From assembly GCF_963921235.1 (NCBI RefSeq), contig NC_086097.1, positions 98,458,001 through 98,522,000 on the forward strand: a stretch of DNA of 64,000 nt, read 5' to 3'. This DNA is from Mobula hypostoma. Its lineage: Eukaryota. A program made the position numbers and the translations under genes. Shown here one piece after another: positions 1 to 47,580 of this stretch (positions are counted from its first letter, which is position 1; each line of letters opens with the position of its first letter). The notes beneath the pieces were generated by a model, which saw only the letters and a list, made by a program, of their open reading frames with translations, was not told the DNA's origin and did no database searches.

Positions 1-118
1 CTGCTCCATTGTTCCTTATCTCTCCTTCCCCTGAGGGCAGGTGGCAGACCAACTGCTGATGCCACTGATGCTAGCCCAGGCCAGCAAACATCTTAATTTT
101 ATGTGTATTCTCGTAACA
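1..118 (-). repeat. 3' LTR, partial
   Basis: Identical to 4005-4122; adjacent to the polypurine tract. Confidence 0.92.
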
Positions 119-130
119 CTTCCCCCCTTT
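119..130 (-). promoter_or_regulatory. Polypurine tract
   Basis: Minus strand AAAGGGGGGAAG immediately precedes the 3' LTR. Confidence 0.85.
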
Positions 131-290
131 AAGGATTTTTACCGGGAGGTAAAAATTACAAACATGACTACATTGTCTGATACATACACAATATACATCT
201 TTAACAGTTATTTAGCTAATACAGAGAATTTGAAGCTGTCAACACCTTGACAGACAGTCATCACATTTTCTGTTCCTTTTACACGTGTTA

Positions 291-1178
291 TTAATAACTC
301 CTTAGACCAGGCTCCAACTCAGCAAACTTCATAGTGGCCAAAAACACTGATGAATTGCGACCAATGTAACCTCTCATTTGGTTTTGTCCCGGACCACAAC
401 AACAAGGGTCGTCCCATTCCGACTCAATTTTCTCTCGCAAGGGCTTAGTAGGAGGGGGACGGGTATTGACCGCAGAGTTATTGCAAAACTTCCTGCAGTA
501 CCCCACCATCTCCAAAAGCCTTCTGAGGGCCCTCTTGTCTGTCGGGGTTGGGAGGTCAGCGATAGCCTGCACTGTAGCTTGCATCACTGCCAGCTGCCCC
601 TGTGTCACCACAATTCCCAGGTAAGTGACATTCGTGTGGCCGAATTCATTTTTTCCAAGGTTCACTATCAAGCTGGCTTCAGACAGCCGTGTTAAATTGC
701 CAATACACACCTCTGTGTTCATCAGCCCTTTAGTCACTGAATTACTCAAAAAATATGGGTGTTGTTTACTTGGCCGCCCTATTGTAACCACAATCACCCA
801 ACGTCCCAGTTCTTTGCATTTCCTCGGGACAATCAAACACATGGGTGCGAGTCGTTTAATTACTCCTTCGGGGATTAAGGGAGAGACCTTATCAGTAGAC
901 CTGGCCAAAACAATAGCCTTCTCCCATCTGACCGATCCCATCCTAATCTTTTCAAAATGGTTTTTTTCTCTTATCAAGGGGCCCCTAGCTTCATTGATTT
1001 CCACGCTAACACCGACTAGGTTTGTTAGCATATCAAAAGCCGGTGACCGTCTCAGTTCGCGTCGGTCATGATCAATAACATTCTTCCCCCTGGGCAGCCG
1101 GTAAATCTCTTTCATGATTCCACCAACTGTTTCCCCCAGCACCGCAAAATGTCCACCGGGGGGTACTTCGTGGGCCAT
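291..1178 (-). pseudogene. Collapsed integrase/RT remnant, 295 aa open frame, catalytically dead
   Basis: AHEVPPGGH (integrase HHCC start), then KQHPY, NLGKNEFGHTNVTYLG and LPTPTDKRALRRLLEMVGY (RT fragments); the YxDD position appears to read CIGN. Confidence 0.75.
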
Positions 1179-1196
1179 GTTAAAAACCTCATCCCC

Positions 1197-3164
1197 TTAA
1201 CTCTTTTGCACCACCCCCCACTCCTCATCTGCGGATGCTGTACTTGATTTCCCTTTCTTCCTTAGCACTTCCTCATCCGCACAATAGCTTGTCAAGGCTG
1301 TGTCAGAGAGAGCGGTCTCGGCAAAAACCATCAGCCCCTCGTCTCGCTCCTGCGTCTGCACAAATTCTTTCCTGGCTACTGCTACGTCCGTCCCAGCTCC
1401 CTCACTACCTCTTATCTCACTACACCCTGTCTCATACAAGGTTGGCAGAAATGTTTCAGCCAAATTCACCATCGCGGGCGGGGCCTCCATGCTGGCAGGC
1501 TGACCCGTCAATCTCACGACTGGGAACACGATTCCTCCGGCGATGTCATTACCGAGCAAGACTTCCACGTCTTTCATCGGTAATTCGGACCTCACCCCGA
1601 TCGTGACTAGTCCAGAGACCAGGTTGCTCTGTAAATGTATCTGGTGCAAAGGGACTGACTCTGTCCCTTCCCCAACACCTTTGACCTCTACCTCCCCAAT
1701 CTGGGTCTCTGAGCTAAACTCTAATACACTCTTCAGTATTAGTGACTGACACGCTCCCGTGTCTCTCCAGATCCGCACTGGAACTGGTTTTAACCTCTCC
1801 TTCACTGACACCAGTCCGGCCGAGATAAACCTCTCGCGCCCTTCCTGGACTTTTTCAGACCTGTCCTTCCCTAGCGGTTCGCTTAACAGCTCGATACAGC
1901 CATTCAAAATTTCCGCTTTTCCTTTTCCCGTCTCCTTCCTTGGGGCAAAGCACCTGGACGCAAAGTGTCCGACTTTCCCACAATTATAACAGACGACTCC
2001 AGGAGACTTCCTACCAGACTGCTCCCGGTCTACCTTATCCTTTTCACTAGTCCCCGGCTTACTTTCTGACTTTTCCGGTGGACTCCCCCCGCCGTCCTGA
2101 CTACCCTTCTGGTAGCCTTTACTCGGGGCAACCTTCATTTTATGCGTCAACGCATACTCATCCGCTAACTTAGCAGTTGCGGCTAACGTGGCTGCCTCTT
2201 TCTCATCGAGGTAGGGTCTCATACCCTCAGGGACACAACCTTTAAACTGCTCAATCAGAACCAGTTGTAGCAGTCTGTCATAATCCCCCTCTACCCCTTT
2301 CGAGGCGCACCAACGCTCACAATATGTTTGCATCTCACGAGCAAACTCCAAATACGTGCGGTCCCACCGCTTCCTCGCATTCCGGAACCTCTGCCGGTAT
2401 GCCTCCGGGACCAACTCATAAGTCCTGAGGATGGCCTCCTTCACCACCTCATACTTCTGGGCATCTTCCGGGGATAAAGCTGAGTAAGCTTGTTGGGCTT
2501 TCCCTTTCAGTACACTCTGAAGCAAGACAACCCACTTATCCCTCGGCCATTCCTGACTTATAGCTACTTTTTCGAAGTGGAGAAAGTACCGATCCACATC
2601 GGTATCGTCAAATGGGGGAACCAGCCTAACCTCCTGGGTCGCCCGGAACCCTCCACCTTGGTTCGGCACGAGCCCCTGCTCGGCCCTTATCTTTAACTTC
2701 TCCAGCTCAAATTCCCTTTCCCTCTGTTTCTCCTCTCTCTCCAACTGTCTGTCCCTCTCTCTCTCTTCTCTCTCCAACTGTCTTTCTCTCTCTTGCCTTT
2801 CTACCTCTTTCTCTCTCTCCTGCCTTTCTAACTCTCTCTCTTTCTCCTGCCTTTCTAACTCTCTCTCTTTCTCCTGCCTTTCTAACTGCCGTACCCGGAA
2901 CTCGTGCTCGAGTCTCAGTTTTTCAAGCTGTACCTGTACCGCGTCTCCAGCAGGTTTTTCAATAGACACCTCCCCCAGCTCACCTTGGGGAAACACACCT
3001 TTAGATACATAGTGCTCTACAATAGCTCTGTGTATCTCCTCTCTCCTCATTGTCGACTTCACCTTAGCAAGATTCACCCGTTTTGCCACAGCTATCAATT
3101 CCGATTTCCTGGCATCCTCTAATGCCTCCAAGGTCGGCGCCTTTATAAATTCCTCAACCTCCAT
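1197..3164 (-). CDS. Gag-protease polyprotein, 655 aa: coiled-coil repeats, SCAN-like capsid, CCHC knuckle, aspartic protease
   Basis: PEAYRQRFR...LIEQF (SCAN-like), CYNCGKVGHFASRC, RDTGA...LLGND; uninterrupted ORF. Confidence 0.9.
   Translation of the reverse strand: MEVEEFIKAPTLEALEDARKSELIAVAKRVNLAKVKSTMRREEIHRAIVEHYVSKGVFPQGELGEVSIEKPAGDAVQVQLEKLRLEHEFRVRQLERQEKERELERQEKERELERQEREKEVERQERERQLEREERERDRQLEREEKQREREFELEKLKIRAEQGLVPNQGGGFRATQEVRLVPPFDDTDVDRYFLHFEKVAISQEWPRDKWVVLLQSVLKGKAQQAYSALSPEDAQKYEVVKEAILRTYELVPEAYRQRFRNARKRWDRTYLEFAREMQTYCERWCASKGVEGDYDRLLQLVLIEQFKGCVPEGMRPYLDEKEAATLAATAKLADEYALTHKMKVAPSKGYQKGSQDGGGSPPEKSESKPGTSEKDKVDREQSGRKSPGVVCYNCGKVGHFASRCFAPRKETGKGKAEILNGCIELLSEPLGKDRSEKVQEGRERFISAGLVSVKERLKPVPVRIWRDTGACQSLILKSVLEFSSETQIGEVEVKGVGEGTESVPLHQIHLQSNLVSGLVTIGVRSELPMKDVEVLLGNDIAGGIVFPVVRLTGQPASMEAPPAMVNLAETFLPTLYETGCSEIRGSEGAGTDVAVARKEFVQTQERDEGLMVFAETALSDTALTSYCADEEVLRKKGKSSTASADEEWGVVQKS
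2725..2890 (-). repeat. Coding tandem repeat of about 27 bp in gag (ERELERQEK)n
   Basis: Repeated tctcctgcctttctaactctctctctt units. Confidence 0.85.
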
Positions 3165-3234
3165 TTCTGCTGTTTGTCTTTTCTTTCTTTCGGGAATTTT
3201 AACCCAATCAATTTACTCCGTCCCAAATTTAGCG

Positions 3235-3259
3235 TTCAAAATCGCGGACGAGAACCCCA
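3235..3259 (-). promoter_or_regulatory. Primer-binding site, tRNA-Pro-like (imperfect)
   Basis: Minus strand reads TGGGGTTCTCGTCCGCGATTTTGAAC just inside the LTR, resembling the tRNA-Pro complement TGGGGGCTCGTCCGGGATTTGAAC. Confidence 0.75.
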
Positions 3260-3263
3260 CTTA

Positions 3264-4122
3264 TGTTACGTACCCCGTAACTGGGTTGCCAAACCAGCAG
3301 AAATGGATCACTCAGTTGGAGTCTGGAGTACTAGAACTAAGAAAGTTTTATCAAAGAAACAAGCAACACAGTAATCGAAAGGATAATAAATGCAACAGTT
3401 CAGTGATGATAAACACACATGTGCACAGAATTAAGATAACAGCATCAATCAAGCTCTATCGTTGTCTAGGGGTAAATGACCAATTTCAAAATGACTCAAA
3501 GTTCAGTCCAGTTTAGTAGTTCAGTTCGCAGTAATCGTTGCCATGGCGATGGACAAGGTGGGGAAGAGAGAGATAGAATAGGAACAACTCATCATTCAGC
3601 ACAGCTTCACTCACAGACCAGCGAGATGGCTCACAAACAGCTTTTGGGCGGGTCCTTGGTGATGTCACCTGAGGTCACCGACTGTGACCCCTCCTCCAGA
3701 TGCGGTCGATCCTCTGCAGTGAACCCGGCACCCAGGCAAGGGCGGACACACACCGGGTTCCCGCTGATCGTACCTTTCCACCCTTGTCGTTGTCTGGCAC
3801 TTCTCACCCACTCGTGAGAAGCGCACCGCTTCCAGGGTCTCGTTACCTCGGGTGGCGTGTGTGTCTGTCTTAGCGAACCTGTCCCTTTTTATCCCCCTGC
3901 TGGGGTATCGCCTGTCCATCACTTCAAACAGTTCAGGGTTCAAAGGGGGGAGCCGCTCCAGACAGCTCTTCCTCCCACATCCCTTCATTACACATCTCCA
4001 GACGCTGCTCCATTGTTCCTTATCTCTCCTTCCCCTGAGGGCAGGTGGCAGACCAACTGCTGATGCCACTGATGCTAGCCCAGGCCAGCAAACATCTTAA
4101 TTTTATGTGTATTCTCGTAACA
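3264..4122 (-). repeat. 5' LTR (859 bp)
   Basis: TG...CA termini with a 7-bp inverted repeat; duplicated at the window start. Confidence 0.92.
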
Positions 4123-4885
4123 CTGAATTGCTGAGTGAATTGCTTCTGTACCTCCTACCTGATGGTAACAATGAGAAGAGGCCATGTCCTGGGTGGTGGG
4201 GGTCCTTAATAATGGATGCCGCTTTTTGAGGCATTGCTCCTTGGGATACTATGGAGGCTAGTATCCATGATGGGGCTAACTAATTTTACAACTTTCTGTT
4301 GCTCTCTGACTCTAATGTCAAGGATTAATTAACATTGGATTCAATGATTCTGGATTACCATGCTTTGTGTCAGAGCTATCTGCTTCTAATGGAAGGTCAT
4401 TCATCATATGAAGATCATTTGCTCTCCTACCATTGTGCAAACGTTACATGATCTGATTGTCTCCCACAGTTCCTGTCAAAATGAACAGGTCTGTGCATAC
4501 AGTCTCGCGTTGAAAAAAGCAACTAAATAGATTGAAAAGCTTGAGTCTGATGTTTTGGGGAGTTGGGTATCTATGGTGAGAGTGTCTGTTGAGCGTTTTG
4601 CCATGAATTATGTCTCTCATTGGCTTTGCAGTAAATGAGGAGGAGCAGATATTATGTATGTTCTTCGAGTTGTTCCCAACATTGCACAAGTATTTTCCTG
4701 TAATTGTCAAAGCTGAGCACCTTGTCTAAAGATCCAGCATTATCTTGTATTATTACACTCTTTGAATTAGTTTGGCCTGTATTGAGGAATGTACACTGAT
4801 GAAGTGTTCCATCAGCAACCACATTGTAATTTTTTTTCAGACTCTTTGCCAATAACTGCTGTCTTTTATCTTTTCTTGGTTTTAG

Positions 4886-5028
4886 AAAACATTGTACACA
4901 CAAACTGCACCTTTCCATGTGGTGATAACCAGTTATCAGCTGGTGGTTCAGGATGTGAAGTACTTTCAGCGGGTGAAGTGGCAATATATGGTGCTAGATG
5001 AAGCACAGGCACTTAAAAGCAGTTCCAG
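4886..5028 (+). CDS. INO80: INO80 coding exon (first in window): [47 protein letters not shown], Walker B/DEAQ box
   Basis: Polypyrimidine tract with ttttag acceptor and AG|gtaaac donor; 143 nt, ends in phase 2; translation recognised as INO80 SNF2 ATPase. Confidence 0.96.
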
Positions 5029-17116: not shown

Positions 17117-20100
17117 TGTACCATATAGCCTACTGTATAATATGGGACTATTTTATCTCATAGTAACACGTTATTGAGCATGCGCTGTTAAGTGCGTATT
17201 GATCTATATATATGTTCAGTTCATTTTTAGTTAGTAAAGAACCCTGTTGATTTAGCTCCCGTCTCCAGCGTTTTATTTATAGCTTTGTTGTGTAAACCGG
17301 CCACCTACATAACAAATTGGCGACGAGGTTAATGAACCTGCATCGTATTGGAACGCCGTGTTTTAATTGATAATGACACTCAGAAGAGGCAGAGTGAGGC
17401 CGTGAGTCTGAAAAGAAGCGGGAGTTCAGCCAGCGTTGGGAACGTTGGGAGACCGAAAGACACGGTTGGAGCCACAGCACATCCAGGCGAGACCACAGCT
17501 GGCGCTGAACCCCAGGATTGAGGGTCTGCCTGCCTCAGAAAGGAGATTTTAAAAAAAGGAGCAACACACGCCATCTAGCCAGAGTACGCTTGCGACGCTA
17601 GCAAAAAAGAAGTCACGTGAGTCAAAAAGAAAACAAGGGACTGGGGCTAAGTTAACCAAAAAGGGATAAGTTAACACAACAAGGACAACGTTAATGAAGA
17701 AAAGAAAGCCAACATCTTACTTAGTGTAACGGGCGCAAAAACGTATAGCCTGCTACTGAGCTTGTTAACCCCTGAAAAGCCAGCTGACAGAATGTTCAAG
17801 CAAATAGTAGACACTCTCCAACAGCATTTAAACCTCAAACCTCAAACCGCTGATCATTGCTGAAAGAGTTAAATTCCATAAACGGAATTAGAGCAAAAAT
17901 GAAAGCGTTTCTGAATATTATGCTGAATTGCGCAAATTATCAGAACATCGTCAATTTGGAGCTGGTTTATCAGACGCGTTGAGGGATTGGTTAGTGTGTG
18001 GCATGCACTGTGAAACCAACAGAAGAAGCTCCTGTGTGAAAAAGACCTTACATTCGAGAAAGTGCTAAACATCTCAATATCATTAGAAATAGCTGCACGA
18101 GGTGCTTCCGAGATGCAACAAAAATGTCTGGAATATGCCGCAAATAAAATGTCACTGAACAGAAATGAAGGAAAGAAATGTTACCATTGTGGGAACAGGT
18201 CACATGACCCTGATGATTGTAGGTTTAAAGATAAAGAATGCAGAAACTGTGGCAAACGGGGCCACATTGGCAGAGTATGCAACACTAGTAAACAGCAGAA
18301 AAAGGGCAAAATACAGAGAAACAAGAAACCCCAGAAGGAAAATACAACAATGTGCACAAAATGGAAAAAAAGCAATTCTGGTGAAAATGACTCAGACAAA
18401 AGTGAATTGTCTTATCTGCAACTTCACAGCGTGAAAGAGACAGATGATCAAAGAGTAATAAGGGTCACTCCACAAGTGGCAGGCGTGAGACTGAAAATGG
18501 AGTTGGACACAGGCTCAGCCTCAACACTGATCTCTGTACATGACTACAAATGACTGTTTTCACACATACCTCTGAAATGAACTAAACTACTACTAAAAAC
18601 TTACACAGGACAAAGTATGTCCCAAAGGCAAACGTAAAGTGACAGTGACCCACGGAGGTAAAAACACAGCAACTGAACCTCTATGTACTGAAAAATGGAG
18701 GACCACTGTTGCTGGGACGTGAATGGCTCAGAAAAATTCAGTTGGATTGGCACACCATCAAGGCACTAGATGTGTCAGCAAAGGAGGGCAGCAAGGCTAC
18801 ATCTGAGAGGCTGTCACAAATACTTGCTGACTCTGAGGAAGTGCTCATGAAAGAAATAGGAACACTTCAGGGCATGAAAGCAAAGATTGAGATTGAGGAA
18901 AATGCATGTCTAAAATTTCACAAAGCCAGGCCAGTGCTATATGCAATCCATCCTAAGGTAGAGGCAGAGCTGAAAAATCTGGAGCAGACTGGGGTCCTGT
19001 CGAAGGTGGGTTGGAGTGAATGGGCCACGCCTATTGTTCCAGTGATGAAGAGAACCTCCAGCACAAAACCAGGAAAACCAAGCAAGGTGCGCATGTGTGG
19101 TGACTTTAAAGTGATTGTCAATCCAGTGCTCCACACAGTACAGTACCCCTACCCCGAATTGAGGACATTTTTGCTTCCCTGTCTGGGGAACATTTCACAA
19201 AAATAGATTTGACCCAGGCTTGCCTTCAAATGGAAATCGAGGAAGCATCCAAGAAATACCTGACAATAAATACACGCAAAGGACTTTATCAGTACAACAG
19301 GTTGGTGTTTGGGATAGCATCAGCTCCTGCAATGTGGCAAAGGGCAATGGACCAGGTTCTGCAGGGGATTCCAGGGACTCAGTGTTACCTGGATGACATC
19401 ATTGTCACCGACAAAGATGACGACGAACATCTTTCCAACCTAAAACAAGTGCTCACCAGGTTACGAGAATATGGGCTCAGAGCTAATCGACAGAAATGTG
19501 AGGTTTACAAAAAGGAAATTTCATACTGTGAGCATGTGATCAATAAGGATGGCTTACACATGTCTCAAGACAAGATAGAAGTGGTGCTTAAGGCACCACC
19601 ACCTGAAAATGTGTCTCAGCTGAGAGCATATCTTGGTCTAGTGAACTACTACCACAAGTTCTTGCCTAACCTATCCACAGTCCTACACCCACTAAATGCA
19701 TTATCACAGGCAGAGACACATTGGAAGTGGACTGAGAGCTGTGAGAAAACGTTTCAGGAAACTAAAAGACTCATAACTTCAGACGGGGTGCTCACGCACT
19801 TTGACCCCCCCCCCCTTACTATCCAACTAGCTTGTGATGCCTCGCCCCATGGGATAGGAGCTGTGTTATCGCACAAGTTTCCATATGGCTCTGAAAGACC
19901 AATAGCCTTTGCCTCAAGAATGCTAACTTCAGCTGAATGCAACTATGCACAGATTGACAGAGAGACCCTAAGCCTCGTGTGCGGAGTCAAGAAATTCAGT
20001 CACTACCTGTATGGCCAGAAGTTTACTCTGTTGACTGACCATCAGCTTCTTGTGTCAATCTTCAACCCAAGGAAAGGCATTCCAGTGATGATAGCACAAA

Positions 20101-20722
20101 GGCTACAGCGATGGTCCCTTTTCTTAGGAGGTCACAGGTATGACATCGAACATAAGGAGACCAAGCAACACGGCAATGCAGATGGTTTGTCACGTTTACC
20201 ACTGCCCGCTTCCGAGTTAACTACGCAAATGGATTCAGCAGAGATTTTTCACACAACAATAGTTGAATAATTACCAGTAACAAACATCCTCATTGAAAGG
20301 GAAACACACAATAACCCTACGTTGTCAAAAGTGTATGACATCACGGTAAAGGGGTGGCCAGCGTGGGGTAACACACTGTTTGCAGCCTTCTCAGTGAGGA
20401 AGGAGCAGTTGTCAGTGTGTCAGGGAACACTAATGTGTGGCTCACGAGTTGTGATTCCTCCCAAGTTACATACCAGAGTGCCAGAGGAACTGCACGAGGG
20501 GCACCTGGGTATTGTGTAGATGAAAGGTCTTGCCCGTGCCTATGTGTGGTGGCCAGGAATCGATAAACAAATTGAGGACGTGACCAAGAATATTAGGCGC
20601 GTATTGACCTATATATATGTGTTCAGTTCAGTTTTAGTTAGTAAAGAACCCCTGTTGATCTAGCTCCCGTCTTCAGCGTTTTATTTATAGCTTTGTTGTG
20701 TAAACCGGCCACATACACAATA
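17117..20722 (+). mobile_element. Decayed Gypsy LTR retrotransposon (gag CCHC, PR, RT, RNase H, start of integrase)
   Basis: 5' LTR about 17117-17314; PBS TGGCGACGAG at 17318; CRNCGKRGHIGRVC, LDTGS, YLDD, CDAS; partial 3' LTR about 20592-20722; candidate TSD CATTG; several stops and frameshifts. Confidence 0.92.
19209..20270 (+). pseudogene. Gypsy pol fragment (RT-RNase H)
   Basis: YQYNRLVFG, CYLDDII, LACDASPHGIGAVL, LLTDHQ, NADGLSRLP. Confidence 0.9.
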
Positions 20723-21145
20723 CATTGGAACAGTTCATTGATGTATAATGGAAGATAGACCATGGGAAGGACTTCAGAAGAATGTGAGATAGTCTTACTA
20801 AAACATATAAGACCCCAGTGTCTTTTCAGCAAGAATGTAAGCAACACAGGGTATGCTGCTCAGTCTACAATAATCAAGTGGCTATAATCAAGTGGCTGGA
20901 GGAATTGTCACAGTAATTTTTGTGATCACATGACATTTCTCAATTCACTATTGCTTTCAGATCTTTTATTCATAAATGCCATAACTGGGATTAGAGTACT
21001 TAATGTTGATGGAACTACTGATTGCCGTGACCACCATGCAATTTTTTGTGTGTGTTGCTTGGATTTCCGGCATCTGCAGATTTTCTTGTATGCAGTTTTT
21101 TTCTTTATCTATGTGATACTTATTTCTACTGTTGTCTTTCCACAG

Positions 21146-36869: not shown

Positions 36870-38908
36870 GGGTCTTGTCAAATGTATTCAGGGACTTATC
36901 CTCAACCGGATAAGTATGCTGCAGTTGTTAATGACTTCATTAAAACCTGTGTGGATGAGTATACACTTGCGAAAACTTGCTGTACATTCCCAAAGCAAAA
37001 TCCTTGGATGAACCAGGACGTATGTTGTCTGCTGAAGGCTAGATATGTGGAATTTAAGTCTGGTGACCCAGGTCTGTACAAGAAAACGAGGAATGACTTG
37101 CGGAGGGCTATTTCAAGAGTGAAGAGACAATCCTGAACGAGGTTGGAGGCAACAATGGATGCATGTCAACTCTGGCAGGGTTTGCAAGGTATTACTTCTT
37201 ACAAAGTGATACCCAATAGCATGAATGGCAGCGATGTTTCACTACCAGATGAGCTCAACGCCTTCTATGTCTGATTTGAAAGGGAGAATGTAACTATAGC
37301 TGTGAAGTTCCCTATTGCACCTGGTGACCCTGTGATCTCTGTCTTGGCCGATGTTAGGCTGTTTTTAAGGAGGGTGAATCCCTTGCAAGGTGGCAGGCCC
37401 TGATGGAGTACCTGGTCAGGCTCTTGAAAGCTTATACCAACCAACTGACGGGAGTATTCAAGGACATTTTCAACTTCTCACTGCTATGGTTAGAAGTTCC
37501 CACCTGCTCAGGAAGGCAACAGTTATACCTGTGCCTAAGAAGAGTAGTATGAGCTGCCTTAATGATTATTGCTTTGAAAGGTTGGTCATGGCTAGAATGG
37601 ACTCCTGCCTCAGTGAGGACCTGAACCCACTGTAATTTGCCTACTGCCAAAATAGGTCTACAGCAGATGCAATCTTAATGGCTCTTCATAGGGCCTTGGA
37701 TCACCTGGATAATACAGAGACCTATGTCAGGATGTTGTTTGTTAACTTTAGCTCAGCATTTAACACAATTATTCCTACAGTCCTGTCGATAAGCTACAAA
37801 ACCAGGACCTCAGGACCTCTGTACCTCCCTTTGCAATTGGATCTTTGACTCCTTAACCGGAAGACCACAATCTTGGTGCGGATTTGTGACAATATCTCCT
37901 CCTCGCTGACGATCAACACTGGAATACCTCAAGGATGTGTTCTAAACCCACTGCTATACTCCCTCTACACCCATGACTGTGTGGCTATGCACAGCTCAAA
38001 TACCATTGATAAATTTGCTGATGATGTAAGCATTGTTGGTAGAAAATCAGATGAAGATGAGAGGATGTAGAGGAGTAATTTATACCAGCTGGTTGAGTGG
38101 TGTTGCAGCAAAAAGCCTTGCACTCAATGTCAGTAAGATGAAAAAGTTGATTGTGGACTTCAGGAAGGGTAAGACAAGGGAACACAAACCGATCCTCCTA
38201 GAGGGATCAGAAGTGGAGGGAGTGAGCAATTTCAGATTCCTGGGTGTCAAGATCTGAGGATCTAGCCTGGTTCCAACAGGTTGATACAGCTATAAAGAAG
38301 GCAAAACAGCGGCTATATTTCATCTGGAGCTTGAAGAGATTTGGCTTGTCAACTAAAACACTCAAACTTCTATAGATGTATCATGGAGAGCATTCTGCCA
38401 GACTGCATCACTGTCTGCTTTGGGGGTGTGGGGCAAGGTTGCTACTGCACAGGACCGAAAAAAAGCTACAGAAAGTTGTAAAATTAGTCAGCTCCATCTT
38501 GGGTACTAGCCTCCGTAGTACCCAAGACAACTTCAAGGAGGAGTGCCTCAAAGATAACAGCCATTATTAAGGACCCCCATAACCCAGGGCATGCCCTCTT
38601 CTCATTGTGACCGTCAAGAAGGAGGTGCAGAAGCCTGAAGGCACACACTCAATGATTCAGGAACAGCTTCTTCCCCCTCTGCTATACAATTCCTAAATGG
38701 ACATTGAATCCAAGAACACTGCCTCACTTTCTGTATATGTGTGTATATATTTCTTGTGTGTTTGCACTGTTTTTAATCTATTCAATGTATAAATATACTT
38801 TAATTTATCTTTATTTTCTTTCTATATTATGCATTGCATTGTATGCTGCTGCTGAGTTAACAAATTTCATGACACATGCCAATGATAGTAAACGTGATTC
38901 TAACTCTG
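36870..38908 (+). mobile_element. Rex1/Babar-like LINE (RT and 3' UTR), degraded
   Basis: FPKQNPWM, AGPDGVP, CFERLVMAR, TGIPQGCVLNPLLYSLYTHDC...KFADD; gattct-type tail. Confidence 0.85.
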
Positions 38909-40866: not shown

Positions 40867-42405
40867 CAATCCCCTTTTCCAAAATGCAATAAAAACAAAA
40901 ATCTGTAATATGTTAATTCACGTGAACCTTTATTTAACTGACAAAAGTACAAAGAAAAGATTTTCAATAGTTTTACTGACCAACTCTATTGTATTTTGTA
41001 AACATACACAAATTTAGAATTTGACTGCAACACACTCAACAAAAGTTGGGACAGAGTTAAAATAAGATTGAAAAGTGCACAGAATATTCAAGTAACACTG
41101 GTTTGGAAGACTTCACATTAAGCAGGCTAATTGGTAGCAGGTGAGGTATCATGACTGGGTATAAAAGTAGCGTCCATCAAAGGCTCAGTCTTTGCACGCA
41201 AGGATGGGTTGTGGCTCACCCCTTTGTGCCAAAATTCGTGAGAGAATTATTAGTCAGTTCAAAAGGAACATTTCTCAATGCAAGATTGCAGAGAATTTAG
41301 GTCTTTCAACATCTACAGTACATAATATTGTGAAAAGATTCAGAGAATTCAGAGACATCTCAGTGCGTAAAGGGCAAGGTTGGAAACCGCTGTTGAATGC
41401 GCGTGATCTTCGAGCCCTCAGGCGGCACTGCCTAAGAAACCTTCATGCTACTGTGACAATTATAGCCACCTGGGCTCGGGAGTACTTCGGAAAACCATTG
41501 ACACTCAACACAGTCCATCGCTGCATCCAGAAATGCAACTTGAAACTGTATTACGCAAGGAGGAAGCCATACATCAACTCTATGCAGAAACGCTGGCAAG
41601 TTCTCTGGGCCCGAGCTCACCTCAGATGGACCGAAAGACTGTGGAACCGTGTGCTGTGGTCAGATGAGTCCACATTTCAGCTAGTTTTTGGAAAAAACGG
41701 GCGTCGAGTTCTCCGTGCCAAAGATGAAAACGACCATCCAGATTGTTATCAGCGAAAGGTGCAAAAGCCAGCATCTGTGATGGTATGGGGATGCATCAGT
41801 GCCCACGGCATGGGTGAGTTGCATGTATGTGAAGGTACCATTGACTCTGAGGCGTATATTAGGATTTTAGAGAGACATATGTTGCCATCAAGGCAACGTT
41901 TCTTCCCGGGACGTCCATGCTTATTTCAGCAGGACAATGCCAGACCACATTCTGCATGGGCTTCAACAGTGTGGCTTTGTAGACACAGAGTGCGTGTGCT
42001 TGTCTGGCCTGCTGCCAGTCCAGATCTATCAGACAATGGAGACCACAGACTGTTGAGCAGCTGAAGTCTTATATCAAGCAAGAATGGACAAAATTACCAA
42101 TTGCAAATCTACTAGAATTAGTATCCTCAGTTCCAAAATGATTAAAAAGTGTTATTAAAAGGAAAGGTGATGTAACACAATGGTAAACACGCCTCTGTCC
42201 CAACTTTTGTGAGTGTGTTGCAGCCATCAAATTCTAAATTTGTATATGTTTACAAAATACAATTAAGTTGGTCCGTAAAACTATTGAAAATCTTTTCTTT
42301 GTATTTTTGTCAGTTAAATAAAGGTTCACGTGAATTAACATATCACAGATTTTTGTTTTTATTGCATTTTGGAAAATATCCCAACTTTTCTGGAAATGGG
42401 GTTTG
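40867..42405 (+). mobile_element. Tc1 DNA transposon with TIRs of about 200 bp
   Basis: TA at 40865-40866 and 42406-42407; long inverted repeats; internal transposase ORF. Confidence 0.94.
41204..42064 (+). pseudogene. Tc1 transposase; a deletion after SPDLS removes the catalytic Glu of DD34E
   Basis: HTH region, WSDES, VMVWGC, FQQDNARPH, WPAASPDLS, then a frameshift with no PIENxW. Confidence 0.88.
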
Positions 42406-43906: not shown

Positions 43907-46510
43907 CAGTTACAAGAAAAAAAAATTGTGAACCCTTTGCAATTACCTGGTGTTCTGCATTAATTACTCATAAAATGTTATCTTTGCATAAGTCACAATA
44001 ATAGACAAACACGATCTGCCTAAACTAATAACACGCAGATTGTACTTCTCGTCAATACTCAGTATACCATTCAATGAGATGAGATTGGAGGTGTGGGTAG
44101 TAGAGGGGCCCTGCCCTATAAAAAATGACCCACAAAGTCGGATTACTGACAGCATATTCTTAAGAAAGGTCTGTTTATGTGCACCATGCCTTGATCAAAA
44201 TGACTTTTAGAGTACCTTCAAAAAACTGTAGCAATGTGTGATGCTGGAAAAGGCTATAAAAGCATTTCTGAAGACCTGAGTGTTCGTCAGTCCACAGTAA
44301 GAGAAATTGTATGCAAATGGAGTAAATTCATTACTGTTGCTACTCTCCCTAGGAGTGAGAGTTAATCAAAGATCACACCAAGAGCACAACGTGGAATGCT
44401 GAAGGAGGTGAAAAAGAACCCAAGGGTAACAGCAAAAGATCTGCGGAAATCTCTGGAACTTGCTAAATTTTCTATTAATGTGTCCACTATCAGGAAAGCA
44501 ATGAACAAGAATGGTGTTTATGGACAAACCCATCGGGAGAAACCATTGCTTTCCAAAAAAAAAATTGCTGTCCATCTCAAGCTTGCAAAAGACCACTCGG
44601 ATGTTCCACAACACTTCTGGGACAGTGTTCTGTGGATAAATAAGATAAAGGGTGAACTTTTTGGCAGAAATAGATGCCACTATGTTTGTAAGAAAAAGGA
44701 CACTGCACAGCAACACCAAAACCTCATCCCAATTGTGAAGCATGGTAGAAGGAGCATGATGGGTTGGGGCTGCTTTGCTGCCTCAGGGCCTAGACAGCTT
44801 GCAATTGTTGACATAGACATAGACATAGAATAGTACAGCACAGTACAGGCCCTTCAGCCCACATTGTTGTGCCGACCCCTCAAACCCTGCCTCCCATATA
44901 ATCCCCACCTTAAATTCCTCCATATACTGTCTAGTAGTCTCTTAAATTGCACTAGTGTATCTGCCTCCACCACTGACTCAGGCAGTGTATTCCACGCACC
45001 AACCACTCTGAGTAAAAAACCTTTCTCTAATAACCCCCTTGAACTTCCCACCCCTTACCTTAAAGCCATGTCCTCTTGTATTGAGCAGTGGTGCCCTGGG
45101 GAAGAGGTGCTGGCTATCCAATCTATCTATTCCTCTTAATATCTTGCATAACTCTATCATGTCTCCTCTCATTCTCCTTCTCTCCAAAGAGTAAACCCCT
45201 AGCTCCCTTAATCTCTGATCATAATCCATAATCCATCCAGGCAGCATCCTGCTAAATCTCCTCTGTACCCTTTCCAATGCTTCCTCATCCTTCCTATAGT
45301 GAGATGACCAGAACTGGACACAGTACTCCAAGTGTGGCCTAACCAGAGTTTTACAGAGCTGCATCATTACATCGCGACTCTCAAACTCTATCCCTCGACT
45401 TATGAAAGCTAATACCCCATAAGCTTTCTTAACTACCCTATCTACCTGTGAGGCAACTTTCAGAGATCTGTGGATGTGTACCCCCAGATCCCTCTGCTCC
45501 TCCATACTACCAAGTATCCTGCCATTTCCTTTGTACTCTGCCTTGGAGTTTGTCCTTCCAAAGTGTACCACCTCACACTTCTCCGGGTTGAACTCTCATC
45601 TGCCACTTCTCAGCCCACTTCTGCAACCTATCAATGTCTCTCTGCAATCTTTGACAATCCTCTACACTATCTACAACACCACCAACCTTTGTGTCGTCTG
45701 CAAACTTGCCAACCCACCCTTCTATCCCCGCATCCAGGTCGTTAATAAAAATCACGAAAAAGTAGAGGTCCCAGAACCAATCCTTGTGGGACACCACTAG
45801 TCACAACCCTCCAATCCGGATGTACTCTCTCCAGCACGACCCTCTGCCTTCTTCAGGCAAGCCAATTCTGAATCCACCTGCAAGAGATCTCTAAAATTGA
45901 CCACATGTAGGGAACAATGAATTCAAAATTTTATTTAGACATTTTTCAAGAGAATGTCAGGGTCCATCACCTGAAGCTCAATGCAAGTTGGATGATGCAA
46001 CAAGACAGTGATCTAAAAACACAAGAGTAAATCAACAACAAAATGGATTAAGAACAAGGAAGTGTGAGTGACCAAATCAGAGGCTAGACCTGAACCCAAT
46101 GGAGATGCTGTGGCATGACCTGAAGAGGGCTGTTCATGCAGAGTATCCATGAAATATTGATGAACTGAAACAGTTTTGTATGGAGGAATGGTCTAAAATT
46201 GTTTTGCGCCATTGTGCAAGTCTAAGCAGCAACAACTGGAAATGTTTGGTGGAGGTTATTGCTGTTAAAGGAGGTTCTATCAGTTACGAAATACAAGGGT
46301 TCACATACATTTGCCAGCCTGGCCTGTGAATGATTACACAATGTGATCAATAAAGACACGAAAAGTTCAATTGTTTGTGTGTTGTTAGTTTAGGCAGATT
46401 GTGTTTGTCTATTATTGTGACCAAGATGAAGATCAGACTACATTTTATGAGAAATTAATATAGAAAACCAGGTAATTGCAAATGGGTTAACAAACTTTTT
46501 CTTGCAGCTG
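43907..46510 (+). mobile_element. Second Tc1 transposon (different family), degraded and split by a CR1
   Basis: TA|CAGTTACAAGAAAA ... TTTTCTTGCAGCTG|TA; KHGRRSMMGWGCFAASG before the insertion, and QQD...PDLNPMEMLW after it. Confidence 0.9.
44811..45880 (-). mobile_element. 5'-truncated CR1 LINE nested in the Tc1
   Basis: FADDTKVGG, LVRPHLEYCVQFWS; (CTATGT)n tail at 44811-44828. Confidence 0.92.
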
Positions 46511-47164: not shown

Positions 47165-47580
47165 TCCATCTTGGATACCAGTCTCTGTTGTACCTCAGAC
47201 ACCTTCAAGGAGTGGCACCTCAGAAAGCTAATGTCCATTGTTAAGGACCCTATTACCCACGTCATGCCTTCTTCCCATTATTACCGTCAGAAAGGAGGTA
47301 CAGAAGCCTGAAGGCACACAACAATATAGGAACAGCTTCTTCCCCTCTGCCATCCAATTTCTGAATGGATATTGAACCCATGAACACCACCTCACTTCTT
47401 TTAATTTATATTATTTTTGTTTCTGCACTATTTTTAATCTGTTCAATATAGATATATGTATATATACTTTTATTTATTTGTTCTTTTCTTTCTTTCTATG
47501 TTATCATTTATTGCATTGAACTGCTGCTGCTAAGTTAACAAATTTCACAACACATGTCGATGATAATAAATCTGATTCTG
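47165..47580 (+). mobile_element. Rex1/Babar-like 3' fragment
   Basis: Homologous to about 38495-38908. Confidence 0.75.

Follow-up and report, generated by a model that had tools for sequence, protein, structure and literature searches.

A devil-ray LTR retrotransposon family with a whole gag-protease and a pol remnant held in one reading frame

Why should an element that has lost every catalytic part of pol keep what is left of it readable? The question is raised by an intron of INO80 in the devil ray Mobula hypostoma, which hosts a Gmr1-like (SCAN-gag) LTR element in antisense orientation. The window, the whole stretch of DNA analysed here, comprises 64,000 nucleotides of contig NC_086097.1. 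The element is best read as one recent copy from a non-autonomous LTR retrotransposon family, Gmr1-like and high in copy number, that belongs to devil rays (Mobula). Its remnant is useless and yet has remained readable in a single frame, which suggests that the spread of the family is aided by the act of translation rather than by the leftover protein itself.

Table 1. Positions of the element's parts and of its flank within the window
Feature	Position	Strand	Basis
INO80 exon, 3' of the intron with the element	4886..5028	+	47/47 residues align to INO80 chains, E 3e-24
Older high-copy repeat interrupted by the element	4123..4303		inverted matches 38464-38634, 47248-47307
Start of 3' LTR, reaching the window edge	1..118	-	118/118 identical to 4005-4122
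5' LTR, 859 bp, TG...CA, 7-bp inverted ends	3264..4122	-	complete LTR
Primer-binding site (PBS), PBS-Pro-like	3241..3259	-	2 mismatches and 1 extra base against the published probe (PMC4587795)
Polypurine tract (PPT), abutting the 3' LTR	119..130	-	sequence
ORF part 1, 655 codons: Gag, protease (PR), PR-integrase linker	1197..3164	-	97% identical to P0003
gag E/R/K/Q coiled-coil repeat, 27-nt units	2660..2897	-	repeat analysis and alignment
Capsid, SCAN domain at 2139-2408	2139..2657	-	PF02023 E 5.3e-13
CCHC zinc knuckle (nucleocapsid)	1950..1994	-	PF00098 E 5e-6
Aspartic protease, D-T-G motif intact	1509..1835	-	assigned by alignment to full-length relatives
In-frame TAA	1197..1199	-	private to the window copy as far as related proteins show
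Integrase zinc-finger remnant	1059..1196	-	CxxC half and entire core (about 289 codons) lost at about 1059
Integrase end and linker to RT, strongly drifted	753..1058	-	51% to P0262
RT palm remnant	693..752	-	YxDD position reads C-I-G-N, then 18-codon deletion
RT thumb remnant	402..689	-	profile iE 1.4e-30; Ty3 RT structure 4ol8 E 6e-5
RNase H end scraps, three frames	242..401	-	weak matches, E 0.016 and 0.33

The window element retains its LTRs, a PPT and an imperfect PBS around an internal region of 3145 bp, the length given in the original prediction. The purine tract and the primer site had both been reported as present; the former abuts the 3' LTR as described, and the latter departs from the published probe as listed in Table 1. 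An Rfam search returned chance matches only, at the PBS. Positions 1-120 are identical to 4005-4124, and 118 of these belong to the LTR, which upholds the claimed identity. The description of the element as young is consistent with that identity, but 118 comparable bp bound LTR divergence only to less than 2.5%. In run X1, 150 contigs exit at 3264 into unrelated flanks; none among the contigs listed bridges the 4122/4123 junction or position 1197. Read by eye, the loose ends of contigs at 4142 resemble 4123-4141.

The gag-PR frame of 655 codons, with SCAN domain, CCHC knuckle and intact D-T-G, is present as predicted; its protease region has no Pfam match at E 1. The number of coiled-coil repeat units differs in frame among the aligned copies, and the capsid is the best-conserved region (88-99% across Mobula sub-lineages). 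The division into a gag-PR ORF and a separate remnant ORF had to be given up. The remnant occupies the gag-PR frame and is split from it by the single TAA at 1197-1199; of 36 related proteins, 18 continue across this point and none ends there. From 291 to 1196 the frame is open for 301 codons, down to the family stop codon at 291-293; 20,000 shuffles averaged 16.8 stops and none was free of them, and the remaining minus-strand frames contain 24 and 23 stops. Judged by its related proteins, the family has a single Gag-PR-remnant ORF, about 940-1000 codons long, and the window copy's stop after codon 655 is its own. Such an early stop probably makes the window copy an inferior template or a dead end. 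The confidence of an AlphaFold model of P0003 was too low for use (mean pLDDT 46, pTM 0.22).

Mapped onto full-length relatives, the remnants lie with integrase ahead of RT, the Gmr1 order that had been proposed. Catalytic RT, RNase H and the integrase core are all missing from the window element. RVT_1, RNase H and rve profiles find no match in P0002 or P0003 and all three are present in P0158, which agrees with the earlier statement that the integrase core and RNase H are gone. YxDD had been reported as absent, and the motif is indeed lost, but its position survives in altered form. The RT fingers and the start of the palm (about 128 codons) are deleted at about 753. Because the RNase H stretch (about 242-400) is spread over three frames, the single open frame that had been described is held only up to about 400. 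Host-mRNA capture was ruled out as the source of the middle piece: by way of P0262, an older form from M. birostris, this piece can be followed back to the integrase end and linker of the element itself. P0262 matches a sawfish element at z 10.2; the 753-1058 piece of the window alone does not (z 0.4).

The 13 top matches are all Mobula proteins (76-97% identical), and the deletions are common to the window and to Mobula RefSeq proteins that are 92-97% identical. The same C-terminus is reached by 8 of the 36 examined proteins, on 7 chromosomes. A multicopy family with shared deletions had been predicted, with a single copy carrying private deletions as the refuting case; the dispersed copies bear out the former. 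Summed contig depth in run X1 reaches at least 190,000 within the element versus 9.5 on the flank. The depth of the remnant is 0.67-0.71 of that of gag. Summed contig depth is not copy number; division by 31 yields lower bounds of roughly 650 (X1) and 48 (X9). The public reads indicate hundreds of copies or more. Given that run X6 covers the intron and not the INO80 exon bin, X6 and X13, whose RNA nature is a guess, are uninformative on transcription.

Alignment to the profile of autonomous elements shows pol to have been lost stepwise. P0262 falls into three abutting blocks separated by jumps of about 290 and 127 positions, and a further 8 length changes between P0262 or P0020 (which keeps only the start of integrase) and the window are all in frame; at one in three each, the chance of such an in-frame run is about 1.5e-4, under a null that ignores a possible in-frame bias of template switches. 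The mapped length changes up to the RT thumb number 11, all in frame. Both big deletions join look-alike motifs, a microhomology observed at the protein level. About 167 amino-acid changes distinguish the window from P0262, and 71% of the polarisable ones lie on the window's lineage, where 5.2 stops are predicted if the sequence were neutral and none is seen (P(0) 0.005). The read indels listed (12 of 29) all fall in the LTRs, and three of four ORF joints of known length are in frame. Among young-type proteins that cross codon 656, 8 of 16 exit the frame early. P0006 and P0007, on different chromosomes, share one exit point within the thumb, which suggests copying of the frameshifted lineage itself. 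Stingray relatives have a different, non-pol tail, in frame in 6 of the 9 examined. The proposal that selection keeps the frame open gains from the 11 in-frame changes and the roughly five missing stops, and is weakened by the stop in the window's own copy and by the early exit of roughly half of those annotated copies that reach the remnant.

These comparisons also show conservation of capsid and protease and drift in the remnant, at about four times the rate of the capsid. Between sub-lineages of similar linker distance, the remnant retains 51-62% identity versus 88% in the capsid and 79-83% in the protease, the capsid and remnant figures coming from different proteins matched by linker distance rather than from one copy. 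The ranking is the opposite in 69 autonomous relatives, with the thumb at 63, the integrase finger at 60, the capsid at 54 and the protease at 50. Seven young copies carry amino-acid variants at 43 of 391 remnant sites versus 13 of 275 gag-PR sites (p 0.006). Among the 40 read variants listed of 311, those in the remnant are 11 N to 3 S, as neutral (p 0.77), and those in gag-PR are 5 N to 5 S, significantly different neither from neutral (p 0.14) nor from the remnant (Fisher p 0.20). Taken together, this is evidence that the remnant's amino acids change at a near-neutral pace and that the selection seen would be on the frame.

We consider it reasonably probable that this is a non-autonomous family that borrows RT and integrase and is selected for translation through the remnant, not for the remnant protein. 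In this scenario, deletions would arise by template switching of RT, and the element RNA would be packaged by its own Gag and cut by its own protease, with RT and integrase taken from a co-packaged autonomous Gmr1-like element. Selection would act on translation that ends no more than about 170 nt short of the 3' LTR and not on the amino acids of the remnant. The benefit may be RNA stability against nonsense-mediated decay, or co-translational cis packaging as reported for the mouse element IAP 1-Delta-1.

The remnant polypeptide might instead be useful, its RT thumb and integrase ends recruiting or tethering helper Pol in the particle, with selection on the protein. No other remnant is as well preserved as the thumb, which matches P0262 at 62% and the sawfish element at 54% and has outlasted its deleted neighbours, and the fusion protein of IAP 1-Delta-1 is described as acting in cis in the passages cited (PMC6466679, PMC7411935). 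However, remnants evolve faster than the capsid, the opposite of what autonomous elements do; the thumb has changed 17 times on the window's lineage versus 7 on that of P0262; two copies have in common a frameshift that removes the thumb; and the stingray lineage does likewise with an unrelated tail. We regard this explanation as unlikely. Slightly less credible to us is the absence of any selection on the remnant, in which a very active gag-PR family carries a decaying pol and the open frame reflects luck and a bias towards annotated ORFs. Half of the young-type proteins exit the frame early, the RNase H end is frameshifted, and the copies compared are all annotated proteins, a set that favours long ORFs. 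Such neglect is hard to square with 11 mapped length changes all in frame, with the lack of five expected stops along the lineage from which the young copies arose, or with listed read indels (12 of 29) that avoid the ORF.

Particles need more Gag than Pol, and a cooperative pair could be imagined in which the deleted element gives surplus Gag and protease and a single-ORF autonomous partner gives Pol. Autonomous relatives do have Gag and Pol in one ORF, and gag-PR is conserved in the Mobula family. No full-length Mobula helper was found among the 120 listed of 600 long matches, which is weak evidence with 7,998 candidates scored, and the ray proteins with pol that come closest share only about 55-72% identity. 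Selfish cis packaging would account for gag conservation without cooperation, and we think such a pair very improbable. Domestication as a host gene, or one private deletion, has next to no probability left: some copies do sit in RefSeq host gene models, but identical LTRs and many dispersed copies with shared deletions and many different flanks refute both.

The preferred reading, selection for translation through the remnant, may extend further. Given that at least 11 length changes and a protein drift of about 40% left the Mobula junk frame open, and that a stingray sister lineage kept its frame with a duplicated gag piece, we tentatively entertain the possibility, at rather less than even chances, that Gmr1-like elements of rays repeatedly become self-packaging parasites that need only translatability after the protease.

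The primary paper on IAP 1-Delta-1 is reportedly that of Saito et al. 2008. In the passages drawn on here, an internal deletion leaves this mouse element with a gag-pol fusion ORF, it is non-autonomous and needs helper proteins, its translation or fusion product aids cis mobility, and it outruns full-length copies (PMC6466679, PMC7411935). The Mobula family likewise has an in-frame gag-pol fusion formed by internal deletion, and evolutionary signs suggest that its mobility may have a similar need for translation in cis. IAP is an ERV, however, in which one 1.9-kb deletion removes part of gag (same passages), whereas the Mobula family is Gmr1-like, keeps gag and protease whole, and went through at least 11 steps with about 40% drift of the remnant. 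With this vertebrate precedent, the idea is less new than the initial comparison with plants alone implied.

Plant TR-GAG elements, as characterized in the part of PMC8704663 used here, resemble it in having LTRs around a single gag-bearing ORF and in being mobile without their own RT or integrase. They are described as encoding Gag only, whereas the Mobula ORF keeps protease and has a linker and pol remnant of about 400 codons fused in frame, and they belong to a different lineage and a different kingdom. Gmr1-like retrotransposons, in the relevant sections of bioRxiv 10.1101/2025.03.03.638093, have a SCAN-type capsid and the order protease, integrase, RT-RNase H, and are abundant in fish. 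The Mobula family has the SCAN capsid and the PR-IN-RT order, traits on which its assignment is based, the RT core being deleted; unlike those elements, it lacks catalytic pol and is non-autonomous. A further likeness is to defective-interfering RNAs that require an open frame, deleted parasites for which translation and not the encoded sequence reportedly matters (van der Most 1995; Molenkamp 2000; cited in PMC4395149). Those are RNA viruses with experimental proof, and the Mobula family is a genomic retrotransposon for which the case is one of evolutionary inference.

Zebrafish BHIKHARI encodes Gag alone. It too is a vertebrate LTR family with Gag as the notable product, but it is ERV-related and useful to its host (PMC13269885, in the portion cited), a usefulness of which the Mobula family gives no sign here.

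In our literature search, outside which most subscription journals and repeat databases lay, neither a non-autonomous Gmr1-like family nor the Mobula family was described; either may be catalogued in those sources. Non-autonomous LTR elements that keep gag are already known, and the Mobula family records a whole series of pol decay with the frame held and the protein drifting. Its hundreds of copies in public Mobula assemblies would permit a computational test of selection on translation (RNA stability, cis packaging). If true, the repeated-evolution reading would make these elements a natural example, open to counting, of a vertebrate retrotransposon in which translation itself is selected. 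The rule of keeping the frame may also account for the capture of genes in frame by ray elements.

RefSeq merges some copies into host gene models, under isoform names of MACC1, PPM1Lb, UBE2G2 and PISD, and the analysis flags models that mistake Mobula element ORFs for host isoforms.

The element on the minus strand belongs to a multicopy family in Mobula and is not an isolated wreck. The best 13 protein matches are Mobula RefSeq models (76-97% identity), and the remnant, i.e., the collapsed pol after the protease, is matched by five M. hypostoma proteins at 86-95%. When 36 Mobula proteins are aligned to the window frame, 18 read through the position of the TAA that follows codon 655, none ends there, and 8, on 7 different chromosomes, reach a shared C-terminus; therefore, the family has one ORF. 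It spans ~940-1000 codons, as the coiled-coil repeat of gag differs in size between copies. As far as the proteins show, the TAA is private to the window copy.

Contigs from public sequencing run X1 have summed depths of 190,000-500,000 inside the element vs 9.5 on the flank, and those from X9 (a second organism) 75,000-280,000 vs 50; summed contig depth is not copy number, and even division by 31 implies hundreds of copies. In run X1, 150 contigs continue past the edge of the LTR into flanking sequences that are unrelated, which together with the shared C-terminus bears out many copies with common deletions, as the original prediction supposed. Remnant depth is 0.67-0.71 of gag-PR depth, so the collapsed form is common.

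RefSeq names four element ORFs (P0003, P0135, P0130 and P0011) as host-gene isoforms (MACC1, PPM1Lb, UBE2G2 and PISD); the gene models have probably taken in copies that lie in introns. In M. birostris, a single 44-Mb contig carries four gag-PR proteins of the older type that are almost identical (P0018, P0139-P0141), perhaps as a tandem cluster.

Features of the element copy in the window
Feature	Position	Strand	Remarks
Element	4122 to past window start	minus	
Complete LTR	3264-4122 (859 bp)	minus	TG...CA, 7-bp inverted ends
PBS	3241-3259		PBS-Pro-like; 2 mismatches and 1 extra base vs PBS-Pro probe
ORF part 1	1197-3164	minus	655 residues; SCAN, CCHC knuckle, D-T-G protease motif
Purine tract			adjoins 3' LTR

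The predicted identity of the two LTRs over the comparable 118 bp is confirmed: within the window, 1-118 exactly repeats the first 118 bases of the LTR, bounding divergence at <2.5%. The gag-PR ORF is uninterrupted, as claimed. The purine tract is present, and the PBS is imperfect relative to the probe (sequence in an excerpt of PMC4587795). The next plus-strand exon is that of INO80, and therefore the element is antisense within an intron; it is inserted inside an older repeat, and the window holds no second copy.

After the single TAA, the same frame stays open for 301 codons to 291, a stretch matched by 0 of 20,000 shuffles. This part has no Pfam match and resembles RT thumbs. The claim that the pol fragments share one open frame thus holds for these codons and fails for the final RNase H scraps, which are spread over three frames.

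Pol was lost stepwise and in frame. Against a profile of 70 full-length relatives, P0262 (an older M. birostris form) shows three blocks, adjacent in the protein, between which the profile jumps ~290 and 127 positions; it lacks the integrase core and the RT fingers and palm. In the autonomous sawfish protein P0158, each jump connects two motifs that resemble one another, with a spacing of 289 residues for the first and 128 for the second. Such joins would be expected if templates were switched at microsimilarities, as an excerpt of PMC5131818 describes; the resemblance is one of protein sequence only. P0262 keeps the Y-I-G-D motif and the helix following; young copies read C-I-G-N and have lost 18 more codons, so YxDD is absent as predicted and its position survives. 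From P0020 (a pol-bearing ray protein) or P0262 to the window there are 8 further length changes (-12, -9, -7, -4, +1, -7, -6 and -18 codons), and P0015, P0007, P0133 and P0004 represent intermediate stages. Adding the three shared changes gives 11, all in frame. Direct recognition of the middle remnant piece is lost (z 0.4). Capture of a host mRNA is rejected as its source, because by way of P0262 the piece is linked to the end of integrase and the linker of the element itself (z 10.2).

Protein-level constraint on the remnant is relaxed. At linker distances of 53-64%, identity to the window reaches 88% for capsid and 79-83% for protease, vs 51-62% for the P0262 remnants, these identities coming from different proteins matched by similar linker distance; across 69 autonomous relatives, these regions of pol are more strongly conserved than capsid. 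Seven young copies have 43 amino-acid variants in 391 remnant sites vs 13 in 275 of gag-PR (p 0.006). The 24 read variants listed in the ORF divide into 11 N : 3 S (remnant), which is neutral-like, and 5 : 5 (gag-PR), the latter and the contrast between both being not significant.

Selection probably acts on the frame instead. Were the remnant free, ~5 stops would be expected on the window lineage, and the founding frame has 0 (P ~0.005); the probability that all 8 length changes keep the frame is ~1.5e-4 if each does so one time in three. All 12 read indels listed (17 more exist) fall in LTRs, and of the 4 ORF joints whose length is known, 3 preserve the frame. Against frame selection count the early exit from the frame in 8 of 16 young-type proteins, the identical exit point of the related proteins P0006 and P0007, and an annotation filter that all comparison copies passed.

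A parallel exists in stingrays, where 6 of 9 relatives examined (P0022, P0025, P0026, P0027, P0035 and P0067; Hypanus, Hemitrygon) are gag-PR sisters with a different in-frame tail after the protease, 60-70% alike across the two genera. This tail replaces pol, reaches ~325 residues and consists in part of a decayed gag-PR duplicate.

The element is not autonomous, and the collapsed-pol family is real; our literature search found no account of it. Capsid type and domain order place the element as Gmr1-like, following the definition excerpted from bioRxiv 10.1101/2025.03.03.638093. It falls outside the strict definition of TR-GAG in the portion seen of PMC8704663. In its working it may most resemble mouse IAP 1-Delta-1, in which, according to parts of PMC6466679 and PMC7411935, a deletion leaves a gag-pol fusion aiding mobility in cis. 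Titles cited in PMC4395149 point to the same frame-not-sequence rule in defective-interfering RNAs, and, according to an excerpt of PMC13558583, both IAP and the Ty3 elements of vertebrates show cis-preference.

We suspect that the RNA is packaged by the element's own Gag, and that a helper would supply RT and integrase. Translation up to 172 nt from the 3' LTR may protect or deliver the RNA. The distance to the 3' LTR is 172 nt from the family frame end vs 1078 nt from the window copy's stop; nonsense-mediated decay acts on long 3' UTRs. The helper search returned no Mobula protein among 120 listed of 600 long matches. Among matches listed, the ray proteins that carry pol and come closest are P0020, P0016 and the sawfish family of P0158. 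A full-length Gmr1-like polyprotein, P0204, carries a Campylobacter name, probably through contamination.

The window also holds a Tc1/mariner element (40875-42376; 150-bp inverted ends, 96%; 297-codon transposase frame) and a Tc1-like element with inverted ends and a LINE RT fragment within (43918-46500). A second, older Gypsy element (17205-20728) retains gag, protease and RT-RNase H, all with disrupted frames and apparently without integrase, and LTR pieces 92-95% alike, merely 3.4 kb apart.
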